A stretch of 64,000 nucleotides of DNA from a phage. Below are positions 3,232 through 15,804 of the stretch, one piece after another; within the stretch, counting starts at the first letter, position 1; every line of letters starts with the position of its first letter. A program made the position numbers and the translations under genes. The stretch is from sequence record PZ452594.1. One strand, 5' to 3'. The notes under the pieces are model-generated. The model saw nothing but the letters and a program-made list of their open reading frames with translations, made no database searches and had not been told where the DNA came from.

Positions 3232-3261
3232 ATAATATCACAACTCTACCGTAAAGTAAAC
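3232..3261 (-). promoter_or_regulatory. T4-type early promoter (GTTTAC-18-TATTAT)
   Basis: GTTTAC at 3256-3261 (minus), -10 at 3232-3237, just upstream of the 2965-3201 ORF. Confidence 0.5.
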
Positions 3262-3263
3262 TA

Positions 3264-3539
3264 TTAAATTGCTTTGAATTCTGATGTCTGTGATTCAAAG
3301 CGAATATCGCCTTTGATGACTAGCTCAGCATCAAGACCGAATACGACAATGATATGCGCTGAACCTGGATACAACGTGATGGCAACAGAATCCACCTGGT
3401 CTGGAAGCAAAGTATTCAATACATGAGTCACTTGAGCATGGATTCGAAGCTCAGCTGCATTATCAAGTTTTTCAAACATATTATTAGCGATAATTTGGCT
3501 AAACACTACTTCTACGATTTTAGAGTAAGTCGGAAACAT
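3264..3539 (-). CDS. hypothetical protein
   Basis: 91-aa ORF. Confidence 0.5.
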   Translation of the reverse strand: MFPTYSKIVEVVFSQIIANNMFEKLDNAAELRIHAQVTHVLNTLLPDQVDSVAITLYPGSAHIIVVFGLDAELVIKGDIRFESQTSEFKAI

Positions 3540-3541
3540 AT

Positions 3542-3734
3542 TTACCTCACATAATTTTCTTCAAGCCAATCAATAACATCCAAAGCGTTATCAAAAGTTG
3601 CGCCATCTACTTTGTCTTCTGTTTCATAATCAAGAACATCTAGGCCTACTCTTCCGTCAACAATAGGCCATAGACAAAATAGATATTTCTTTTCTTTTTC
3701 AATTTTATCACAAAGACGATAAATCTTTTCTAGG

Positions 3735-3742
<8 letters not shown>
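3542..3742 (-). CDS. hypothetical protein
   Basis: 66-aa acidic ORF. Confidence 0.45.
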
Positions 3743-4840
<1,098 letters not shown>

Positions 4841-4936
4841 TTAATCCTATTCCATAGTCCAAATCCATGTATACTGCACCATTGTATACATCGTTGTAAC
4901 GGTATAACGGTCTGAGCATTCTAACATAGTTTTCAT

Positions 4937-7983: not shown

Positions 7984-9162
7984 TTAAAAATATTTTTTAA
8001 AACTCATCATAACTTTATCATCAACATCATTATCAATCTGTGCTACAAGGTAAGATGACAGTTCTACTTCTTGCGGTGCAGATTGAACATTATCAGAATT
8101 AAGATATTCACGAATCCAAGGATATGGATGTTTAACCGGAGCATCGGCAATTGGGCATGGAAGACCGCACTGTTTCATACGAGATACAGTTAAGTAATCA
8201 ATAAAGCTCCACATGCTATTTGTATTTAATCCAGGAACATCGCCATCTTTAAATAAATGAACTGCCCAGTCTTTTTCTTGACGGTTAACTTCCATGAAAA
8301 TATCAACTGCTTCTTGTTCACACTCTTGGGCGATTTTAACCCATTCATCACCATCAGTGCCAAGTTGAAGTTGACGAATAATATATTGGGTGCCTTTAAG
8401 GTGAAGCTGCTCATCACGAGCAATGAACTTCATAATCTTGGCATTACCTTCCATGATTTCCATGTTCTTATGGAAGTTAAAGGTACATGCGAAAGATACA
8501 TAAAAACGAATAGCTTCCAATGCGTTGATTACATGCAAACAGAGGTAAAGAGATTTCATTAGCTCATGCTTCCAATATGTCTCATGCTCAATAGCATCTT
8601 CAATAACGTCTTCGTCTGCATTAATTTCTTTTTGGTATTCGATATCAGCTTTAGCGTTTTCCCAATAACGAGTTTTAATCAGAACATCATCATAATAGCG
8701 TCCAATAGATTCGGCTCGTTTCATAATAGCTTCATCTAATACAATTTCATCAAATACCTTCGATGGATCAGTATAAAGATTTCGCATGATATGAGTATAT
8801 GAACGACTGTGAATAGTTTCACTAAAAGTCCATGTAGCAACCCATGTATCAAGGCTTGGGTCTGAAATTAATGACATAAGTACAGCAGATGGCGCGCGAC
8901 CCTGAATGCTATCTAAAAGTGATTGATACTTCAAGTTGTTAGTAAAAATATTTTGCTGATACTGAGGAAGCTTATTAAACTGTGCAGCATCCATCATCAA
9001 GTTTACTTCTTCAGGACGCCAGAAAAAACTGATCTGCCGCTCAATGAGTTCTTCAAATACTCGATGTCGTTGAATATCATATCGAGCTAAACCTAATCCA
9101 GAACCAAAGAACATCGGTTCATTCAAAACATCAACTGGATTTGTATTAAAAACTGTACTCAT
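7984..9162 (-). CDS. nrdB: ribonucleotide reductase small subunit, uninterrupted
   Basis: 392-aa continuous ORF; di-iron ligand E/H pattern; no intron in the reading frame. Confidence 0.93.
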   Translation of the reverse strand: MSTVFNTNPVDVLNEPMFFGSGLGLARYDIQRHRVFEELIERQISFFWRPEEVNLMMDAAQFNKLPQYQQNIFTNNLKYQSLLDSIQGRAPSAVLMSLISDPSLDTWVATWTFSETIHSRSYTHIMRNLYTDPSKVFDEIVLDEAIMKRAESIGRYYDDVLIKTRYWENAKADIEYQKEINADEDVIEDAIEHETYWKHELMKSLYLCLHVINALEAIRFYVSFACTFNFHKNMEIMEGNAKIMKFIARDEQLHLKGTQYIIRQLQLGTDGDEWVKIAQECEQEAVDIFMEVNRQEKDWAVHLFKDGDVPGLNTNSMWSFIDYLTVSRMKQCGLPCPIADAPVKHPYPWIREYLNSDNVQSAPQEVELSSYLVAQIDNDVDDKVMMSFKKYF

Positions 9163-9857
9163 TTAGAATCCTTAAATTTACATTTATCATAATGCCATCT
9201 TAAAGCATTGCCTTTATTAACTTTCTTACCACAGTGCGGGCAAGGTGGATACTCTGCTCCTTGTTTAGTTCTCAAAGAAATCAAATCACGGGTTTCTTTA
9301 GTATGAGGAACATCTCTTGTCGGAGAAATTGTACCATACATCGGATTAAGCACGCCGACTTTAGCAGCAGCTATATTCTTTTTAGCTTCTTCAGTTTTAG
9401 GCTTTCTCATCTTTTTCTTAGTTTCTTCGCTTTTAGCCCTTCCTTTGGTTGCCGCCGATATTTTGTGTTTGGTTTCTTCTGTTAAACGCAGACCTGTTTT
9501 CGCTTTTGACATTTTCAGTCTCGTTTCTTCAGAAATGACCGTACCTTTGCGAAATTGTGAATTTAACTTCTTTGCATGGGCATATATTTTAGAATGAACT
9601 TTATAATGACGTTTCTTAGTTCCTTTCATATTGCACATCATGAAAAATGCGAATATAACAGATTTTACCGGATAAATCTTTGATAAAATAGCATGCGCTA
9701 TAAAATGTTCTCTAGCTGTTAATTCAACTAAATTTTCTTTATCATCAGAACCTCCCATGCATTTAGGGACTATATGATGTGTCTCTTTATATTCGGATAA
9801 AGGTTCCCGAGCCTGAGCTCGGGAAATTAGGTCGTTATAGATTTTTTGATAATTCAT
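9159..9857 (-). mobile_element. mobE: free-standing HNH homing endonuclease with NUMOD3-type repeats (mobE-like)
   Basis: 232 aa; HNH core HHIVPKCMGGSDDKENLVELTAREHFIAHA; three repeats of the form SEETR/KxKxS..K; sits between nrdA and nrdB. Confidence 0.8.
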
Positions 9858-12121
9858 TACAATTTACACGCTGCACAATCGTCGGCTTTTGGAGTTTCTA
9901 TTTCATAATCATCAGTACCAGAACCATCGCGGGTATTATGATAATAGAAATTTTTTCCGCCAAAATACCAAAAATACAAAAGGTCATCAATCATTATTGA
10001 CATTGGAACCTTTCCTTTAGGGAAGATTTGGGGGTCATAGTATGTATTCGCTGAAGCTGATTGACATACCCATTTCAGCATAATAGCTACCTGCGTAAGA
10101 TAAGGTTTATTACCTTTCTTAGCTAATTTCCATGTATAATCATAGAGGTCTATGTTATGCTCAATATTGGGCACGACTTGATTAAAGGAGCCCTCTTTTG
10201 ATTCTTTAACAGAGACTGGTCCACGTGGAGGCTCGATACCGTTTGTACTGTTAGAAACTTGGGAAGATGACTCACATGGCATAAGTGCTGATAATGTGCT
10301 ATTACGGATGCCAAAGAGCTTAAGGTCTTCCCGCAGCGACGACCAGTCACAAACGTATTTTGGAGCTGCGATTTGGTCAATCTTTTTATTGTACCAGTCG
10401 ATAGGTAATTCGCCTCGAGACCAACGAGTGTCTGAATAATATTCGCAAGGTCCTTTTTCTTTGGCGATCTTAATGGATGCTTTAATGAGTCCATACTGTA
10501 ATCTCTCAAATAGTTCATGTGTTAAATCGTTAGCATCTTCATAAGAAGCAAAGTTACTTGCCAGCCAAGCTGCATAGTTAGTAACACCTACACCAAGGTT
10601 TCGACGCTTTTTAGCTTTTTCTGCTTCAGGAACTGGATATCCTTGGTAATCCAAAAGATTATCAAGAGCACGAACTTGAACTTCTGCTAATTCATTAATT
10701 TTATCTTGGTCTTGCCAATCGAAGTTATCCAGCACAAATGCAGATAACGTGCACAATCCAATTTCAGCATCAGGACTATTCACATCATTTGTTGGAATAG
10801 CAATTTCACAGCACAAGTTACTCTGACGAATAGGTGCCTTTTCACGAATAAACGGAGTGTAGTTATTCGTATTATCAATGAACTGCACATAAATCCTTGC
10901 TGTTCCTGAACGTTCAGTCATGAGCAATTCAAATAGTTCACGGGCTTTAATACGCTTTTTACGAATATTAGGGTCTTTTTCTGCTGCTTCGTATAATTCA
11001 CGGAAACGGTCTTGGTCTTTAAAATAAGAATAATAAAGCTCTCCACCCATTTCATGTGGACTGAACAAAGTAATGTAATCGTTCTTTCCAAAACGTTCCA
11101 TCATTAGATCATTCAGTTGAACACCATAATCCATATGACGAATGCGGTTTTCTTCTACGCCTTTGTTATTTTTTAAAACGAGAAGATTTTCAACTTCCAA
11201 ATGCCAAATAGGATAATAAGCAGTAGCAGCGCCGCCACGAATTCCACCCTGTGAGCATGATTTAACTGCAGTCTGAAAATGTTTCCAAAAAGGAATAACA
11301 CCAGTATGGCGTACTTCACCCATGCCAATCTTAGAACCTTCGGCACGAATCATACCAACGTTAATACCAATTCCAGCGCGTTTAGAGATATATTCAACAA
11401 TTGAAGCGGAAGCCTTATTGATAGACTTTAATGAATCACCTGCCTCAATAACAACACATGAACTAAACTGTCGAGTCGGAGTACGACAACCAGCCATAAT
11501 AGGAGTTGGCAATGAAATCTGTCGAGTAGATACTGCTTCATAAAAACGGATAACATGTTTTAATCTATCAACAGGTTCATCTTGATGCAGTGCCATTCCA
11601 ATAGTCATAAATGCAAACTGTGGAGTTTCATAAATTTGACCAGTGGTTTTATCTTTGACTAGATATTTTTCTTTTAATTGCATCGCCCCGGAATAAGTAA
11701 ATTCCATATCCCGCTCGTGCTTAATTTTTGATTCTAAAAATGTAATTTCTTCTGCTGAATATTTTGACAATAATTCAGGGTCATATTTACCTGCATTTAC
11801 ACAATAAGAAATATGGTCAATAAATGAACGTGGTTCATACTGCCCATAAACATGCTTACGAAGAGAGAACATTAAACAGCGAGCGGCTACATATTGGTAA
11901 TCAGGCTCTTCAACTGAAATAGAATTTGCAGCAGCCTTAATGACAATAGTCTGAATATCATCAGTTGTCATTCCATCACGGAGATAAGATTTAATATTTT
12001 CATATAATTCATAAGGATCTACTGATGTTCCCTCAGCTGCCCAAGATAAAACTTTAATAATTTTTTGTGGGTCAAAGCTCTGAGAAACACCACTACTTTT
12101 GATAACATTAATTAATTGCAT
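9857..12121 (-). CDS. nrdA: ribonucleotide reductase large subunit
   Basis: 754 aa; class I RNR catalytic-site motifs (NLCCEI, PCESSS) and C-terminal CxxC redox pair. Confidence 0.95.
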   Translation of the reverse strand: MQLINVIKSSGVSQSFDPQKIIKVLSWAAEGTSVDPYELYENIKSYLRDGMTTDDIQTIVIKAAANSISVEEPDYQYVAARCLMFSLRKHVYGQYEPRSFIDHISYCVNAGKYDPELLSKYSAEEITFLESKIKHERDMEFTYSGAMQLKEKYLVKDKTTGQIYETPQFAFMTIGMALHQDEPVDRLKHVIRFYEAVSTRQISLPTPIMAGCRTPTRQFSSCVVIEAGDSLKSINKASASIVEYISKRAGIGINVGMIRAEGSKIGMGEVRHTGVIPFWKHFQTAVKSCSQGGIRGGAATAYYPIWHLEVENLLVLKNNKGVEENRIRHMDYGVQLNDLMMERFGKNDYITLFSPHEMGGELYYSYFKDQDRFRELYEAAEKDPNIRKKRIKARELFELLMTERSGTARIYVQFIDNTNNYTPFIREKAPIRQSNLCCEIAIPTNDVNSPDAEIGLCTLSAFVLDNFDWQDQDKINELAEVQVRALDNLLDYQGYPVPEAEKAKKRRNLGVGVTNYAAWLASNFASYEDANDLTHELFERLQYGLIKASIKIAKEKGPCEYYSDTRWSRGELPIDWYNKKIDQIAAPKYVCDWSSLREDLKLFGIRNSTLSALMPCESSSQVSNSTNGIEPPRGPVSVKESKEGSFNQVVPNIEHNIDLYDYTWKLAKKGNKPYLTQVAIMLKWVCQSASANTYYDPQIFPKGKVPMSIMIDDLLYFWYFGGKNFYYHNTRDGSGTDDYEIETPKADDCAACKL

Positions 12122-12438
12122 AAGTCCTCAACTTGAAAATCGTCTTTAAACAATCGGTTAACTATATGAGCTATTATATCACCATGACACGGCTTTGGTT
12201 TACATGTGCATCCTAGCCTCATTCCACGTAAAGGCTCTAAATGTGCTTTAGTTATTTCTCCGGATTTAATTCGACGTATAAAATCTTTTTTGAATAATTC
12301 AATGGCAGCCTCCCGGCTGCCAGCATCTTTACCGACGTAATTTCCCCAAAATGTACCACGGTGAATATTAACATCAAAGTCGGATTTGTATTTATTCACT
12401 ACCCGGCATAGACGGCCCACGCTGGAATAATTCGTCAT
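12112..12438 (-). CDS. hypothetical protein (nrdA.1-like)
   Basis: 108-aa ORF overlapping nrdA start. Confidence 0.5.
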
Positions 12439-12667
12439 ATTGTTTTTCCGTTAATACAGTAATATCATAGTAACAATCGGAAGAAGTTTTAACTGTGGAA
12501 ATTTTATTATCAAAATACTCACGAGTCATTTTATGAGTATAGTATTTTTTACCATAAATGGTAATAGGCTGTTCTGGTCCTGGAACTTCTAACTCGCTTG
12601 GGTTAGGAAGTGTAAAAAGAACAACGCCAGAAGTATCTTTAAATCGTAAAATCATATATCCTCGCAA
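12392..12667 (-). CDS. hypothetical protein (nrdA.2-like)
   Basis: 91-aa ORF. Confidence 0.5.
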
Positions 12668-12675
12668 TAATAAAA

Positions 12676-13536
12676 TTACACCGCCATCTTTCCTTTAATA
12701 GGAGGGTGTGATTCATAGTTGTTAAGAACAAAATTATGCGGCTTTGCGAATTGACTCAACCAAAATACCTGCGATTCTGTGTCCCATTCATCAAATTCAT
12801 CTGGAAATTTTAATTGCAATTCGCATAAATCCATAGGTTCACGACGTAAAATTTCTTTACATTGTTCTACGTGATTCATATAGATATGAGTATTACCGCC
12901 AGAAAATATCAAATCTCCCGGAATAAGATTACACATCTTAGCTACAATATGAACTAACGTAGCATATGATGCAATATTAAATGGAAGACCGAGGAAAACA
13001 TCTACCGAACGTTGATACCACTGGAGGTCAAGGTATCCGTTACGAACATTAAATTGATAGAACATATGACAAGGCGGTAATGCCATATATTTAAGTTCAG
13101 CTGGATTCCATGCAGAAACAATTTGACGCCTATCATTTGGCAGTTTTTTAATACGATCAATAACTTCTATAATTTGGTCTACACCGCCAAAATCACGCCA
13201 CTGTTTTCCATAAATTGGACCAAGTTCACCGCTATGGTATCCTAAATCTTTTGCTTGATTTTCGTAATTTTCATCCCAGACTGTTTTGCCTTGGATTAAC
13301 GAATCATGCTGAATTAATCGTAAATCATTGACATTTGTGCTTCCTGACAAAAACCATATTAACTCAGCAATGCAAGCTTTCCAGGCGAGCTTTTTAGTTG
13401 TTACTGCAGGAAAACCTTTGGTTAAATCCCAACGCAATTTAGTACCAAACAAAGCAATTGTTCCTGTGCCTGTTCGGTCATCGGTTTCATAACCATTTTC
13501 AAAAATGTCTTTAATTAAATCTTGGTATTGTTTCAT
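12676..13536 (-). CDS. td: thymidylate synthase, uninterrupted
   Basis: 286 aa; ThyA active-site region with catalytic Cys (PPCH); no intron. Confidence 0.95.
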
Positions 13537-13580
13537 TTAGTACCTTATATAAATTATAATACATTTTATGAAGCTAATAA

Positions 13581-13940
13581 TCAATACGGTTTAGCATCAA
13601 ATTTTCTCTCAATTTCAGGCGTGAAATATAATTCTTTACCGCGTTTGGAAAAACGACCAATAATATGATAATTATTCTCATCAAACGTGATATTACCAAT
13701 ATTCATAGCTTTCAACCAAATATCGATATTTCTATCCAGCTTTATGTCAAAATTCCAGTACGGAGAACTATTACCGAAAATACTGCAAGCGGATTCAGTG
13801 AAACAACTGCTATAAATCTTGTCCTTAGGAACTACTAATTGATAGACACCTTTAATAAACTGAGGACCCTGCCATTTTGGTTGTTTCGTGTCTTTTTCTA
13901 ATAGAATAGGGTAATAATTAAAATTCATATTTTCCGCCAC
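13581..13940 (-). CDS. hypothetical protein located between frd and td
   Basis: 119-aa ORF with no recognisable motif. Confidence 0.55.
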   Translation of the reverse strand: MAENMNFNYYPILLEKDTKQPKWQGPQFIKGVYQLVVPKDKIYSSCFTESACSIFGNSSPYWNFDIKLDRNIDIWLKAMNIGNITFDENNYHIIGRFSKRGKELYFTPEIERKFDAKPY

Positions 13941-13948
13941 GCGTTATT

Positions 13949-14771
<823 letters not shown>

Positions 14772-14787
<16 letters not shown>

Positions 14788-15131
14788 TGAAAGGGGCCAG
14801 AAGCAAATCCGCTATCTTTAATCATTTTAACTAAAGTTACCATTCCTCTGTTAACTGCTTGCGCGATTTCATCAAAAACTTCATCATTATCACCATAAAG
14901 ATCGCTAAAAAGTTCTAACACATTCTTCTGAACTTTTAATTTACAGCCAACAAATTCGCCTACAGTAAATTCGTTTCCGCCAACTCCAGCGTAAAACGTA
15001 ATTACACCAGTTAATGGTCTTTCACTAGAACATAGGTCGTGTGATAAATTAATATAAGCCGTCCCGGGTACAGTTTTAAGTTGGCAACGAATACTTACTC
15101 GAGCAATTCCAGCTACATGAATGTCAGACAT
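14772..15131 (-). CDS. hypothetical protein
   Basis: 119-aa ORF. Confidence 0.5.
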
Positions 15132-15141
15132 AATATTTTCC

Positions 15142-15384
15142 TCAAATAGACTTTTTCACAATTTTCCAATCAGCTTTAAACTGCTCGACGTCAGAATGAT
15201 AAATCCAGAATCCTGCGCTTTCTCCATCCTCATAAAGAGGGCATCCATCGCATTCATCTTCCCATCCCATGCCACGTAAAAGGTGTTCAGCTTTTTCAAC
15301 AAGTTCAGAATCTTTACCGATGATATTAAAATACCATTTACCTCTAACTTCCGAATCTTTGATGCTCTGACGTTGTAATCTCAT
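15142..15384 (-). CDS. hypothetical protein
   Basis: 80-aa ORF with SD AAGGAGAATAAA before ATG. Confidence 0.5.
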   Translation of the reverse strand: MRLQRQSIKDSEVRGKWYFNIIGKDSELVEKAEHLLRGMGWEDECDGCPLYEDGESAGFWIYHSDVEQFKADWKIVKKSI

Positions 15385-15409
15385 TTTATTCTCCTTAATT
15401 GATAGGGTA

Positions 15410-15439
15410 ATAGTATCACACTACTACCCTTCTGTAAAC
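15410..15439 (-). promoter_or_regulatory. T4-type early promoter (GTTTAC-18-TACTAT)
   Basis: GTTTAC at 15434-15439, -10 at 15410-15415 (minus), upstream of the 15142-15384 ORF. Confidence 0.5.
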
Positions 15440-15804
15440 TACTTTTTGAAAGTTTTTTGCAAAAGTTCAATGATTTCGTCTGCATTGTTTTCGTCAACAA
15501 TGCAGTGAATTTTTGTTACGCCAGAAACCTTGTCTTCGATTTCATCTTCTTCAGAAGTCGGTTCTTTATACTCACGAAAACAATGAAATTCGTCTTCACA
15601 AACGTTAAAGTAAAAATGCTTTCCATTTGCGCATTCAATGTGTTTTATTACTCTAAATCCATCAACAAAGAAAGCTTCTTTAACTTCAAACCATCCGCCA
15701 TTTTCTTGAATAATTTTAACTATTGCTGAATTAGAACGTGGGCGATAATTAATAAATGTATCAATAAGTCTTGGAACAAGTTCATACTTTTTACCGATAT
15801 ACAT
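15439..15804 (-). CDS. hypothetical protein
   Basis: 121-aa ORF. Confidence 0.5.
   Translation of the reverse strand: MYIGKKYELVPRLIDTFINYRPRSNSAIVKIIQENGGWFEVKEAFFVDGFRVIKHIECANGKHFYFNVCEDEFHCFREYKEPTSEEDEIEDKVSGVTKIHCIVDENNADEIIELLQKTFKK

Follow-up and report, generated by a model that had tools for sequence, protein, structure and literature searches.

The open reading frame between frd and td in a T4-like phage genome: a conserved td.1 gene that T4 has probably lost

We put forward an account of the small open reading frame (ORF) that lies between frd and td, the genes for dihydrofolate reductase (DHFR) and thymidylate synthase (TS), in 64,000 nucleotides (nt) of phage DNA from sequence record PZ452594.1 (the window, by which we mean this whole stretch), a segment of a Tequatrovirus (T4-like) genome in which the frd-td region is on the minus strand. 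Sequence identity and deep synteny identify the ORF, with high confidence, as the Tequatrovirus copy of td.1 (RB32ORF229c, PHROG 1928), which is an already annotated and widely conserved hypothetical gene and not a new one. In T4 (NC_000866) the frd stop codon overlaps the td start codon by 4 nt (ATGA), as an earlier reading of this DNA (hereafter the original prediction) had correctly stated; this T4 junction probably arose by deletion, the window holding the older state and not an insertion. We further propose, more tentatively, that the product would be a small, basic, non-enzymatic binding module with an OB/S1-like β-barrel. Taken together, the identity of td.1, its loss in T4 and an OB-like binder make up the best explanation of the locus as a whole, towards which we lean slightly.

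The assignment to td.1 draws on several comparisons. Residues 8-115 of the protein match positions 2-125 of the 126 in the PHROG 1928 profile (E=1.4e-35), and the family hidden Markov model (HMM) built in this analysis scores it at 139 bits. The protein is 97-98% identical in amino acids to the copies named td.1 in GenBank for phage T2H (AY262132.2, ABI48932) and RB32ORF229c for RB32 (DQ904452, ABI95053), the latter carrying the GenBank note 'flanked by 9 bp repeat'. When positions 13400-14100 were searched with megablast, at least 355 phage records showed the same arrangement at a DNA identity of 97-98%, and tblastn found 363 records with td.1 at 90% amino-acid identity or above, including T2, RB14, RB5, RB68 and AR1, to which separate DNA searches add RB32, RB33, T6 and RB51 as carriers. 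td.1 is the majority allele of the genus, being present in about 363 out of roughly 520-560 Tequatrovirus records that include this region, and by tblastn more distant homologs, below 60% identity (28-46%), occur in another 226 records (589 phage records overall). The ORF carries little weight as a discovery: database entries from 2006 onwards list td.1 as a hypothetical protein, and hundreds of genomes have it.

Outside Tequatrovirus, a homolog lies between frd and td in all eight arrangements that were opened, namely those of Klebsiella phage Phi_KR1, Salmonella phage S16, Klebsiella phage P545 (Marfavirus), Pectobacterium phage PM2, Serratia phage CHI14 and Kosakonia phage Kc304 (which share one arrangement) and three metagenomic T4-like phages. 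These cover Jiaodavirus-like Klebsiella phages, Gelderlandvirus (S16), Marfavirus, Mosugukvirus (PM2) and Winklervirus in addition to the metagenomic T4-likes. In seven of the eight, the homolog comes immediately after frd and overlaps the frd stop codon; in the eighth, L013, two further paralogs stand between frd and the queried copy. Counting the window, the order frd, family member, td on one strand is found in this locus and 11 others, and all family copies that were located come from T4-like phages of enterobacteria and have frd and td on either side. The original prediction had taken the ORF for an extra, accessory insertion into the tight frd-td unit of T4 and had looked to synteny for a check, and the comparison came out the other way, with a homolog in this slot across T4-like genera and T4 as the exceptional case. 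The accessory part of that claim stands, as td.1 is dispensable (T4 and a few close relatives are without it) and the junction is polymorphic; the insertion part does not, td.1 being the majority allele and occupying the same slot across genera. As for a housekeeping gene shared by T4 and most of its relatives, the ORF is present in most relatives but absent from T4, and no housekeeping role is known for it.

The family to which td.1 belongs is small (95-120 amino acids, aa) and mostly basic. An HMM search of 1.84 billion representative proteins gave about 20 real clusters, all of 95-119 aa and with a single domain, and no source gives a functional name to any of them; two long hits of this exhaustive search (P0021 and P0023) proved to be repetitive, unrelated sequence, and therefore there are no domain fusions to exploit. 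Genera other than Tequatrovirus carry one to three paralogs in tandem, most of them joined by stop/start overlaps, and in some cases also an ORF of PHROG 9550. By the family HMM there is one copy per locus in Tequatrovirus and Phi_KR1, two in S16, PM2, P545, Kc304 and CHI14, and three in L013. The ORF that comes after the td.1 homolog in S16, PM2 and P545 is such a paralog (hhalign probability 99.1%, E=5e-19), and the tandem paralogs of PM2 and L013 also fall in PHROG 1928. Among non-Tequatrovirus loci in which the whole frd-td interval is available, L014 holds the closest td.1 (63% identity), and there the order is frd, A (the td.1 homolog, 115 aa), B (113 aa), C (69 aa, PHROG 9550, 4670-4879), td, and all junctions overlap. 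The second ORF of L014 is of the paralog B type, and as a tblastn query it retrieves the paralog B genes from other genera (129 records from many genera, only 3 of them listed under Escherichia). The largest expansion seen between frd and td is that of L013 (a metagenomic T4-like contig, Logan SRR28387184, positions 3245-4518), which holds three paralogs of the td.1 family (148, 106 and 95 aa) plus a 76-aa ORF of PHROG 8520.

Within Tequatrovirus the junction is found with td.1 (A) only in roughly 65% of records, with PHROG 9550 (C) only in roughly 25%, or with nothing. The second of these alleles is a 205-bp segment with a 68-aa ORF (PHROG 9550, E=3.7e-45), carried by ACG-C40, fPS-90, Sf21 and others (about 137 records), and the ATG of this ORF overlaps the TGA of frd (ACG-C40, L009 603-809). 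In ACG-C40 the annotation is confined to an internal piece of 42 aa, and in one record the ORF bears the label 'flagellar biosynthesis protein'. Bare junctions were seen nowhere but in T4 strains, T4T, RB55, RB59, vB_EcoM_112, HY03 and FN, a list that draws on the single-piece hits of a junction-spanning 50-mer, as the 9-bp repeat prevents a count of T4-type junctions. The bare junction of vB_EcoM_FN is the same as that of T4, and no other td.1 copy was found in T4 by tblastn summaries (the whole T4 genome was not scanned with the family HMM). The frd-td interval may accordingly be read as a small reduction series, with three ORFs (A, B and C), then one (A or C only), then none.

The 416-bp segment that T4 lacks is bounded by two copies of the direct repeat TAAATGAAA (Table 1), which is perfect over 9 nt, extends to 12 nt with 1 mismatch and has a spacing of 416, and the T4 junction matches exactly the single copy that recombination between these repeats would leave. 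In our model an ancestral frd-A-B-C-td array would have lost ORFs through different deletions, each between stop/start junctions of similar sequence, T4 representing the end state, and the ATGA overlap of T4 would itself be the product of a deletion between the two TAAATGAAA copies. Since T4 is the exception to a conserved frd-td slot, a deletion in T4 is the simplest explanation. Providing T4 is derived at this junction, that the ORF is extra relative to T4 is no evidence of insertion, and the insertion reading is probably T4-centric and backwards. Local alignment of the 44-nt and 20-nt spacers that flank td.1 detected no remnant of B, of C or of a 3' end from a foreign frd (221-499 of 500 shuffles reached the observed score), and the 20-nt spacer was not significantly similar to the end of frd in L014 or in L015. 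A perfect 9-nt inverted repeat, TATATAAAT / ATTTATATA, lies at 13546-13554 and 13951-13959, close to either end of the 416-bp segment, and shares bases with late-promoter-like TATAAAT sequences; with 10 pairs of this kind in 601 nt, it is probably due to chance.

The reading frame of 119 aa that the original prediction had noticed between frd and td exists (13581..13940, minus strand, GTG start), but as the length of the product this figure is probably too high. The most likely start is the ATG at 13928, giving 115 aa, because both conservation (M-N-F-N-Y-Y) and the annotated starts begin there: a 348-nt coding sequence from this ATG is annotated in all three Tequatrovirus records that were opened (Bas39, RB32 and T2H). 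The same ATG overlaps the frd stop codon in the L014 homolog. Among four Tequatrovirus copies the ratio of nonsynonymous to synonymous substitution rates (dN/dS) is 0.00-0.22, with 13 synonymous and 0 nonsynonymous differences between Bas39 and T2H, and the protein is therefore under purifying selection. Judged by this pattern of substitution, td.1 is a real gene.

As the original prediction had observed, the protein has no recognisable motif. No Pfam family was matched by td.1 at E≤10 or by its paralogs, no NCBIfam family by any of them, and no PADLOC family at E≤1 by td.1 and two paralogs; a profile search of PDB sequences returned only noise (dynein, TagH; E about 0.05). The remote homology search and structure prediction that had been suggested as checks led to PHROG 1928 and to a confident AlphaFold model, but not to a significant solved relative. 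Across 23 divergent family members Q16, W19, G27, G91, K95 and G97 are invariant and L9, Y29, N79, F93 and F102 nearly so, and the signature motifs Q-x2-W, (H/K)-G-[IV]-Y and G-R-F-x-K-x-G are all present in td.1. No Asp, Glu, His or Cys is conserved across these members, and therefore an enzyme, a metal-dependent nuclease in particular, is unlikely. The isoelectric point of family members is 6.8-9.4, in most at least 7.7, and that of td.1 is 8.8.

The AlphaFold2 model used here was built from the 23-sequence alignment (mean predicted local distance difference test, pLDDT, 92.2; predicted template modelling score, pTM, 0.85) and replaces an earlier, poor model from 4 sequences (pLDDT 58). Two strands (residues 6-12 and 27-34) and three short ones (38-40, 48-50 and 62-64) come before a helix (68-76), and a long hairpin (86-96 and 99-104) after it. 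This predicted order of β1-β2-(β3)-helix-β4-β5 would be compatible with an OB barrel. A fold search with this model gave no significant match to any solved structure, OB domains included; the weak structural hits are overwhelmingly OB folds (HIN, Teb1, S1 domains, RecO, ExoVII, RPA and SSB). In OB folds the β1-β2 loop, β2 and the β4-β5 hairpin form the canonical ligand face, and in the model the conserved Q16 and W19 fall in the β1-β2 loop, G27 and Y29 on β2, and G91-R92-F93-x-K95-x-G97 in the β4-β5 hairpin, so that the conserved residues of td.1 appear to map to that face. We propose an OB-like module because the weak hits are mostly OB and the strand-helix-strand order fits. Such a module might bind single-stranded nucleic acid or a nucleotide-like ligand, and would be made together with DHFR and TS before replication while being dispensable. 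The basic isoelectric point of td.1 and its conserved Trp, Tyr, Phe, Lys and Arg residues may be indirect hints of binding to nucleic acid. This OB-like nucleic-acid-binding mechanism is offered as a possibility that we hold only tentatively.

Several observations weigh against our account. No Pfam S1, CSD or SSB match was obtained in any of the 23 family members, and nothing was found in the literature on td.1, RB32ORF229c, the accessions or the PHROG identifier. With regard to the history of the junction, its single-copy state in T4 fits an insertion with target duplication equally well. Four direct-repeat families occur within 601 nt, making 9-nt repeats common by chance here, and as this is to be expected in AT-rich DNA only their position is informative. 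Non-coding spacers flank td.1 only in Tequatrovirus, as against the overlaps found elsewhere, and would also fit an insertion. Finally, the synonymous divergence (dS) of td.1 is 0.05-0.26 compared to up to 1.3 for the adjacent td, which recent lateral spread could explain. The spacers and the low dS together leave room for a lateral re-acquisition of td.1.

A broader view of the same family is that td.1 and its tandem paralogs represent a small β-barrel of a kind not described before, or else an OB fold that has diverged extremely, limited in either case to T4-like phages, with a nucleic acid or nucleotide-like ligand and a role either in countering host immunity or in tuning DHFR and TS, the ATGA of T4 then being the secondary scar of a stepwise microhomology-mediated deletion. 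We consider this combination doubtful. The first of its two roles can be taken by itself, with td.1 and its paralogs acting as counter-defence or host-takeover binders, that is, small inhibitors or 'sponges' of a host immunity factor whose copy number and presence vary with host range. The dispensability of td.1 and its polymorphism within the genus agree with such a role, as do the tandem arrays of one to three paralogs, the small size, the lack of catalytic residues and the restriction to phages. Furthermore, td.1 is somewhat more diverged than its neighbours (31-41% identity to the named genera, compared to 43-54% for Frd and 73-77% for Td). Strict position over long distances and strong purifying selection are, however, atypical of arms-race genes, and no similarity was seen to solved structures, any anti-defence proteins in the PDB included. 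The absence of a PADLOC match is weak evidence here, because PADLOC models defence systems and not anti-defence proteins. Neither PADLOC nor the fold search against solved structures gave support to the defence-related gene that the original prediction had in mind. On balance we regard a counter-defence role as unlikely.

Alternatively, td.1 could be a protein partner or regulator of DHFR and TS, for example an adaptor of the T4-type complex that synthesises deoxynucleoside triphosphates, operon linkage serving to match levels. In each of the loci examined, family members were found between frd and td and nowhere else, and the stop/start overlaps that are usual there suggest translational coupling. 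This adjacency alone is weak, as core synteny is generally conserved among T4-like phages, and it is established that T4 makes deoxythymidine monophosphate and replicates normally without td.1. Moreover, within Tequatrovirus td.1 is found beside more than one allele of frd and of td: in Bas39 the neighbours are 99% (Frd) and 86% (Td) identical to those of the window, in RB32 90% and 99%. We therefore find a DHFR/TS partner quite improbable, although the OB-like, counter-defence and partner readings are not mutually exclusive.

The view of td.1 as a mobile cassette, or as an insertion related to homing endonucleases that entered a T4-like bare junction with a 9-bp target duplication, draws on some of the same features that were weighed above. 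The TAAATGAAA direct repeat lies exactly at the boundaries of the indel, which is not decisive because a deletion in T4 predicts the same pattern; the Tequatrovirus-specific spacers and the low synonymous divergence relative to td are also in keeping with it, and two BASEL phage records (Bas39 and Bas63-type) label td.1 'putative homing endonuclease'. Yet neither td.1 nor the 23 family members contain a GIY-YIG, HNH, LAGLIDADG, PD-(D/E)XK, NUMOD or IENR domain, no acidic or His residue is invariant, and 115 aa is too small, while a genuine homing endonuclease in the window (9159-9857, HNH and NUMOD3) was easily recognised. td.1, the sole ORF of the segment, has no transposase or integrase domain, and the only near-terminal inverted repeat is the AT-rich 9-nt pair described above. 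Orthologs occupy the same position in distant genera, and homing endonuclease genes are usually not so fixed. Insertion of a mobile cassette is accordingly very unlikely; nuclease activity of td.1 is largely refuted, and the label in the two records is unsupported. Finally, the idea that the ORF is open merely by chance, or belongs to a pseudogene in decay, as its lack of a known domain and weak Shine-Dalgarno sequence might suggest, has a negligible probability and is already refuted by the pattern of conservation, given the low dN/dS, a full-length frame kept in 586 records, signature motifs shared by 23 divergent members and a confident AlphaFold model.

The td gene of the window is uninterrupted, as the original prediction stated, and no remnant of an intron showed up when 12000-15500 was scanned with Rfam. 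Whether a phage has the td intron does not depend on td.1, since T6 and Yersinia phage PST carry both (as do KarlGJung and Pu-Krd-SF7) and T2 and RB51 have only td.1. The PHROG 9550 allele likewise occurs with the intron in ACG-C40 and without it in Sf21. The possibility that absence of td.1 travels with the I-TevI intron by co-conversion was considered and is ruled out by the occurrence of all these allele and intron combinations. In FN (L010, 601-1448) the match to the T4 td intron ends after its first 235 nt or so, and the annotation has a short, unrelated ORF in the place of I-TevI, so the td intron of FN may be degraded or a variant. The td gene is strongly mosaic within the genus: between the window and Bas39 it has a dS of about 1.1-1.3 and 86% amino-acid identity, whereas td.1 and frd are 98-99% identical, which places a recombination breakpoint between td.1 and td.

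The features of the junction are collected in Table 1. In order of increasing position, the neighbourhood reads nrdA (9857-12121), nrdA.1 (DUF4326), nrdA.2 (DUF5496), td, td.1, frd and small ORFs up to gene 32. A sigma-70-like match (TTGATT-17-TATTAT, 13584..13556) in the 3' spacer of td.1 agrees at 9/12 positions; a promoter there, whether a MotA box or sigma-70, was rejected, this being the only candidate and such matches being no more frequent than in shuffled sequence. Between nrdA and an intron-less nrdB (7984-9162) lies the 232-aa ORF with HNH and NUMOD3 domains (9159-9857, minus strand) mentioned above, which by its domains is a free-standing homing endonuclease at the position of T4 mobE and the genuine mobile endonuclease of this neighbourhood. 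On the other side, two further ORFs on the minus strand, at 14530-14787 and 14772-15131, lie between frd.1 and frd, where T4 has a gap of 71 nt; one is of 85 aa without a Pfam match and the other of 119 aa with DUF7247 (E=8e-31). Comparable ORFs are annotated at this place in Bas39, and one in RB32, and a DUF7247 ORF is also there in L014 and L015. As they are absent from T4, T4 is reduced on that side of frd too.

Table 1. Features at the frd-td junction of the window
Feature	Position	Strand	Description
td (thymidylate synthase)	12676..13536	-	286 aa, uninterrupted; downstream neighbour of td.1
Direct-repeat copy 2, TAAATGAAA	13531..13539	-	Spans the td start codon
Spacer, td.1 stop codon to td ATG	13537..13580	-	44 nt, AT-rich; AAGG as putative ribosome-binding site for td
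Segment present in the window, absent from T4	13540..13955	-	416 bp, from alignment with T4 and RB32; edges ambiguous within the 9-bp repeat
td.1 / RB32ORF229c-type coding sequence	13581..13928	-	115 aa from ATG, stop codon included; PHROG 1928
In-frame extension to GTG start (119-aa version)	13929..13940	-	Probably untranslated
Spacer, frd stop codon to td.1 ATG	13929..13948	-	20 nt; weak Shine-Dalgarno-like GGCGGA, read from sequence
Direct-repeat copy 1, TAAATGAAA (minus-strand reading)	13947..13955	-	Spans the frd stop codon
frd (dihydrofolate reductase)	13949..14530	-	193 aa; upstream neighbour of td.1

T4 is a misleading reference at frd-td, as it probably holds a derived state there. 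Our model also raises the possibility that stop/start junction sequences such as ATGA act as microhomologies through which whole genes are excised with reading frames intact. What interest td.1 retains lies in a confidently predicted fold without a significant solved relative and in the tidy reduction series of its junction, and T4 provides a natural null for the td.1 carriers T2 and T6.

Compared to known systems, the td.1 of T2H and RB32ORF229c are the same gene at the same frd-td position with the same 9-bp flanking repeat, and no material difference separates them from the ORF of the window; PHROG 1928 is matched over its full length, is itself without annotation and has no counterpart model in Pfam, NCBIfam or PADLOC. 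The OB-fold domains (S1/cold-shock-like, SSB/RPA, HIN and the N-terminal domain of RecO) would share with td.1, going by its predicted model, a small β-barrel with a helix between strands 3 and 4 and with aromatic and basic residues that are conserved in the L12 loop, in strand 2 and in the L45 hairpin, td.1 differing by extra short strands between β2 and β3. The free-standing homing endonuclease genes of T-even phages (seg and mob, such as T4 mobE between nrdA and nrdB) are likewise polymorphic in presence and absence within the nucleotide-metabolism cluster; td.1 differs from them in having no nuclease or DNA-binding domain, in being half their size and in its conservation of position across genera. 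There is a parallel in setting with the small ORFs of the T4 gene 32-nrdA cluster (frd.1/DUF5417, frd.2, frd.3, DUF7247, nrdA.1/DUF4326 and nrdA.2/DUF5496), which are, like td.1, small, prereplicative, of unknown function, placed among genes of nucleotide metabolism and variable between relatives. They are unrelated to td.1 in sequence, and td.1 stands apart from them in belonging to no Pfam family and in forming tandem arrays of paralogs.
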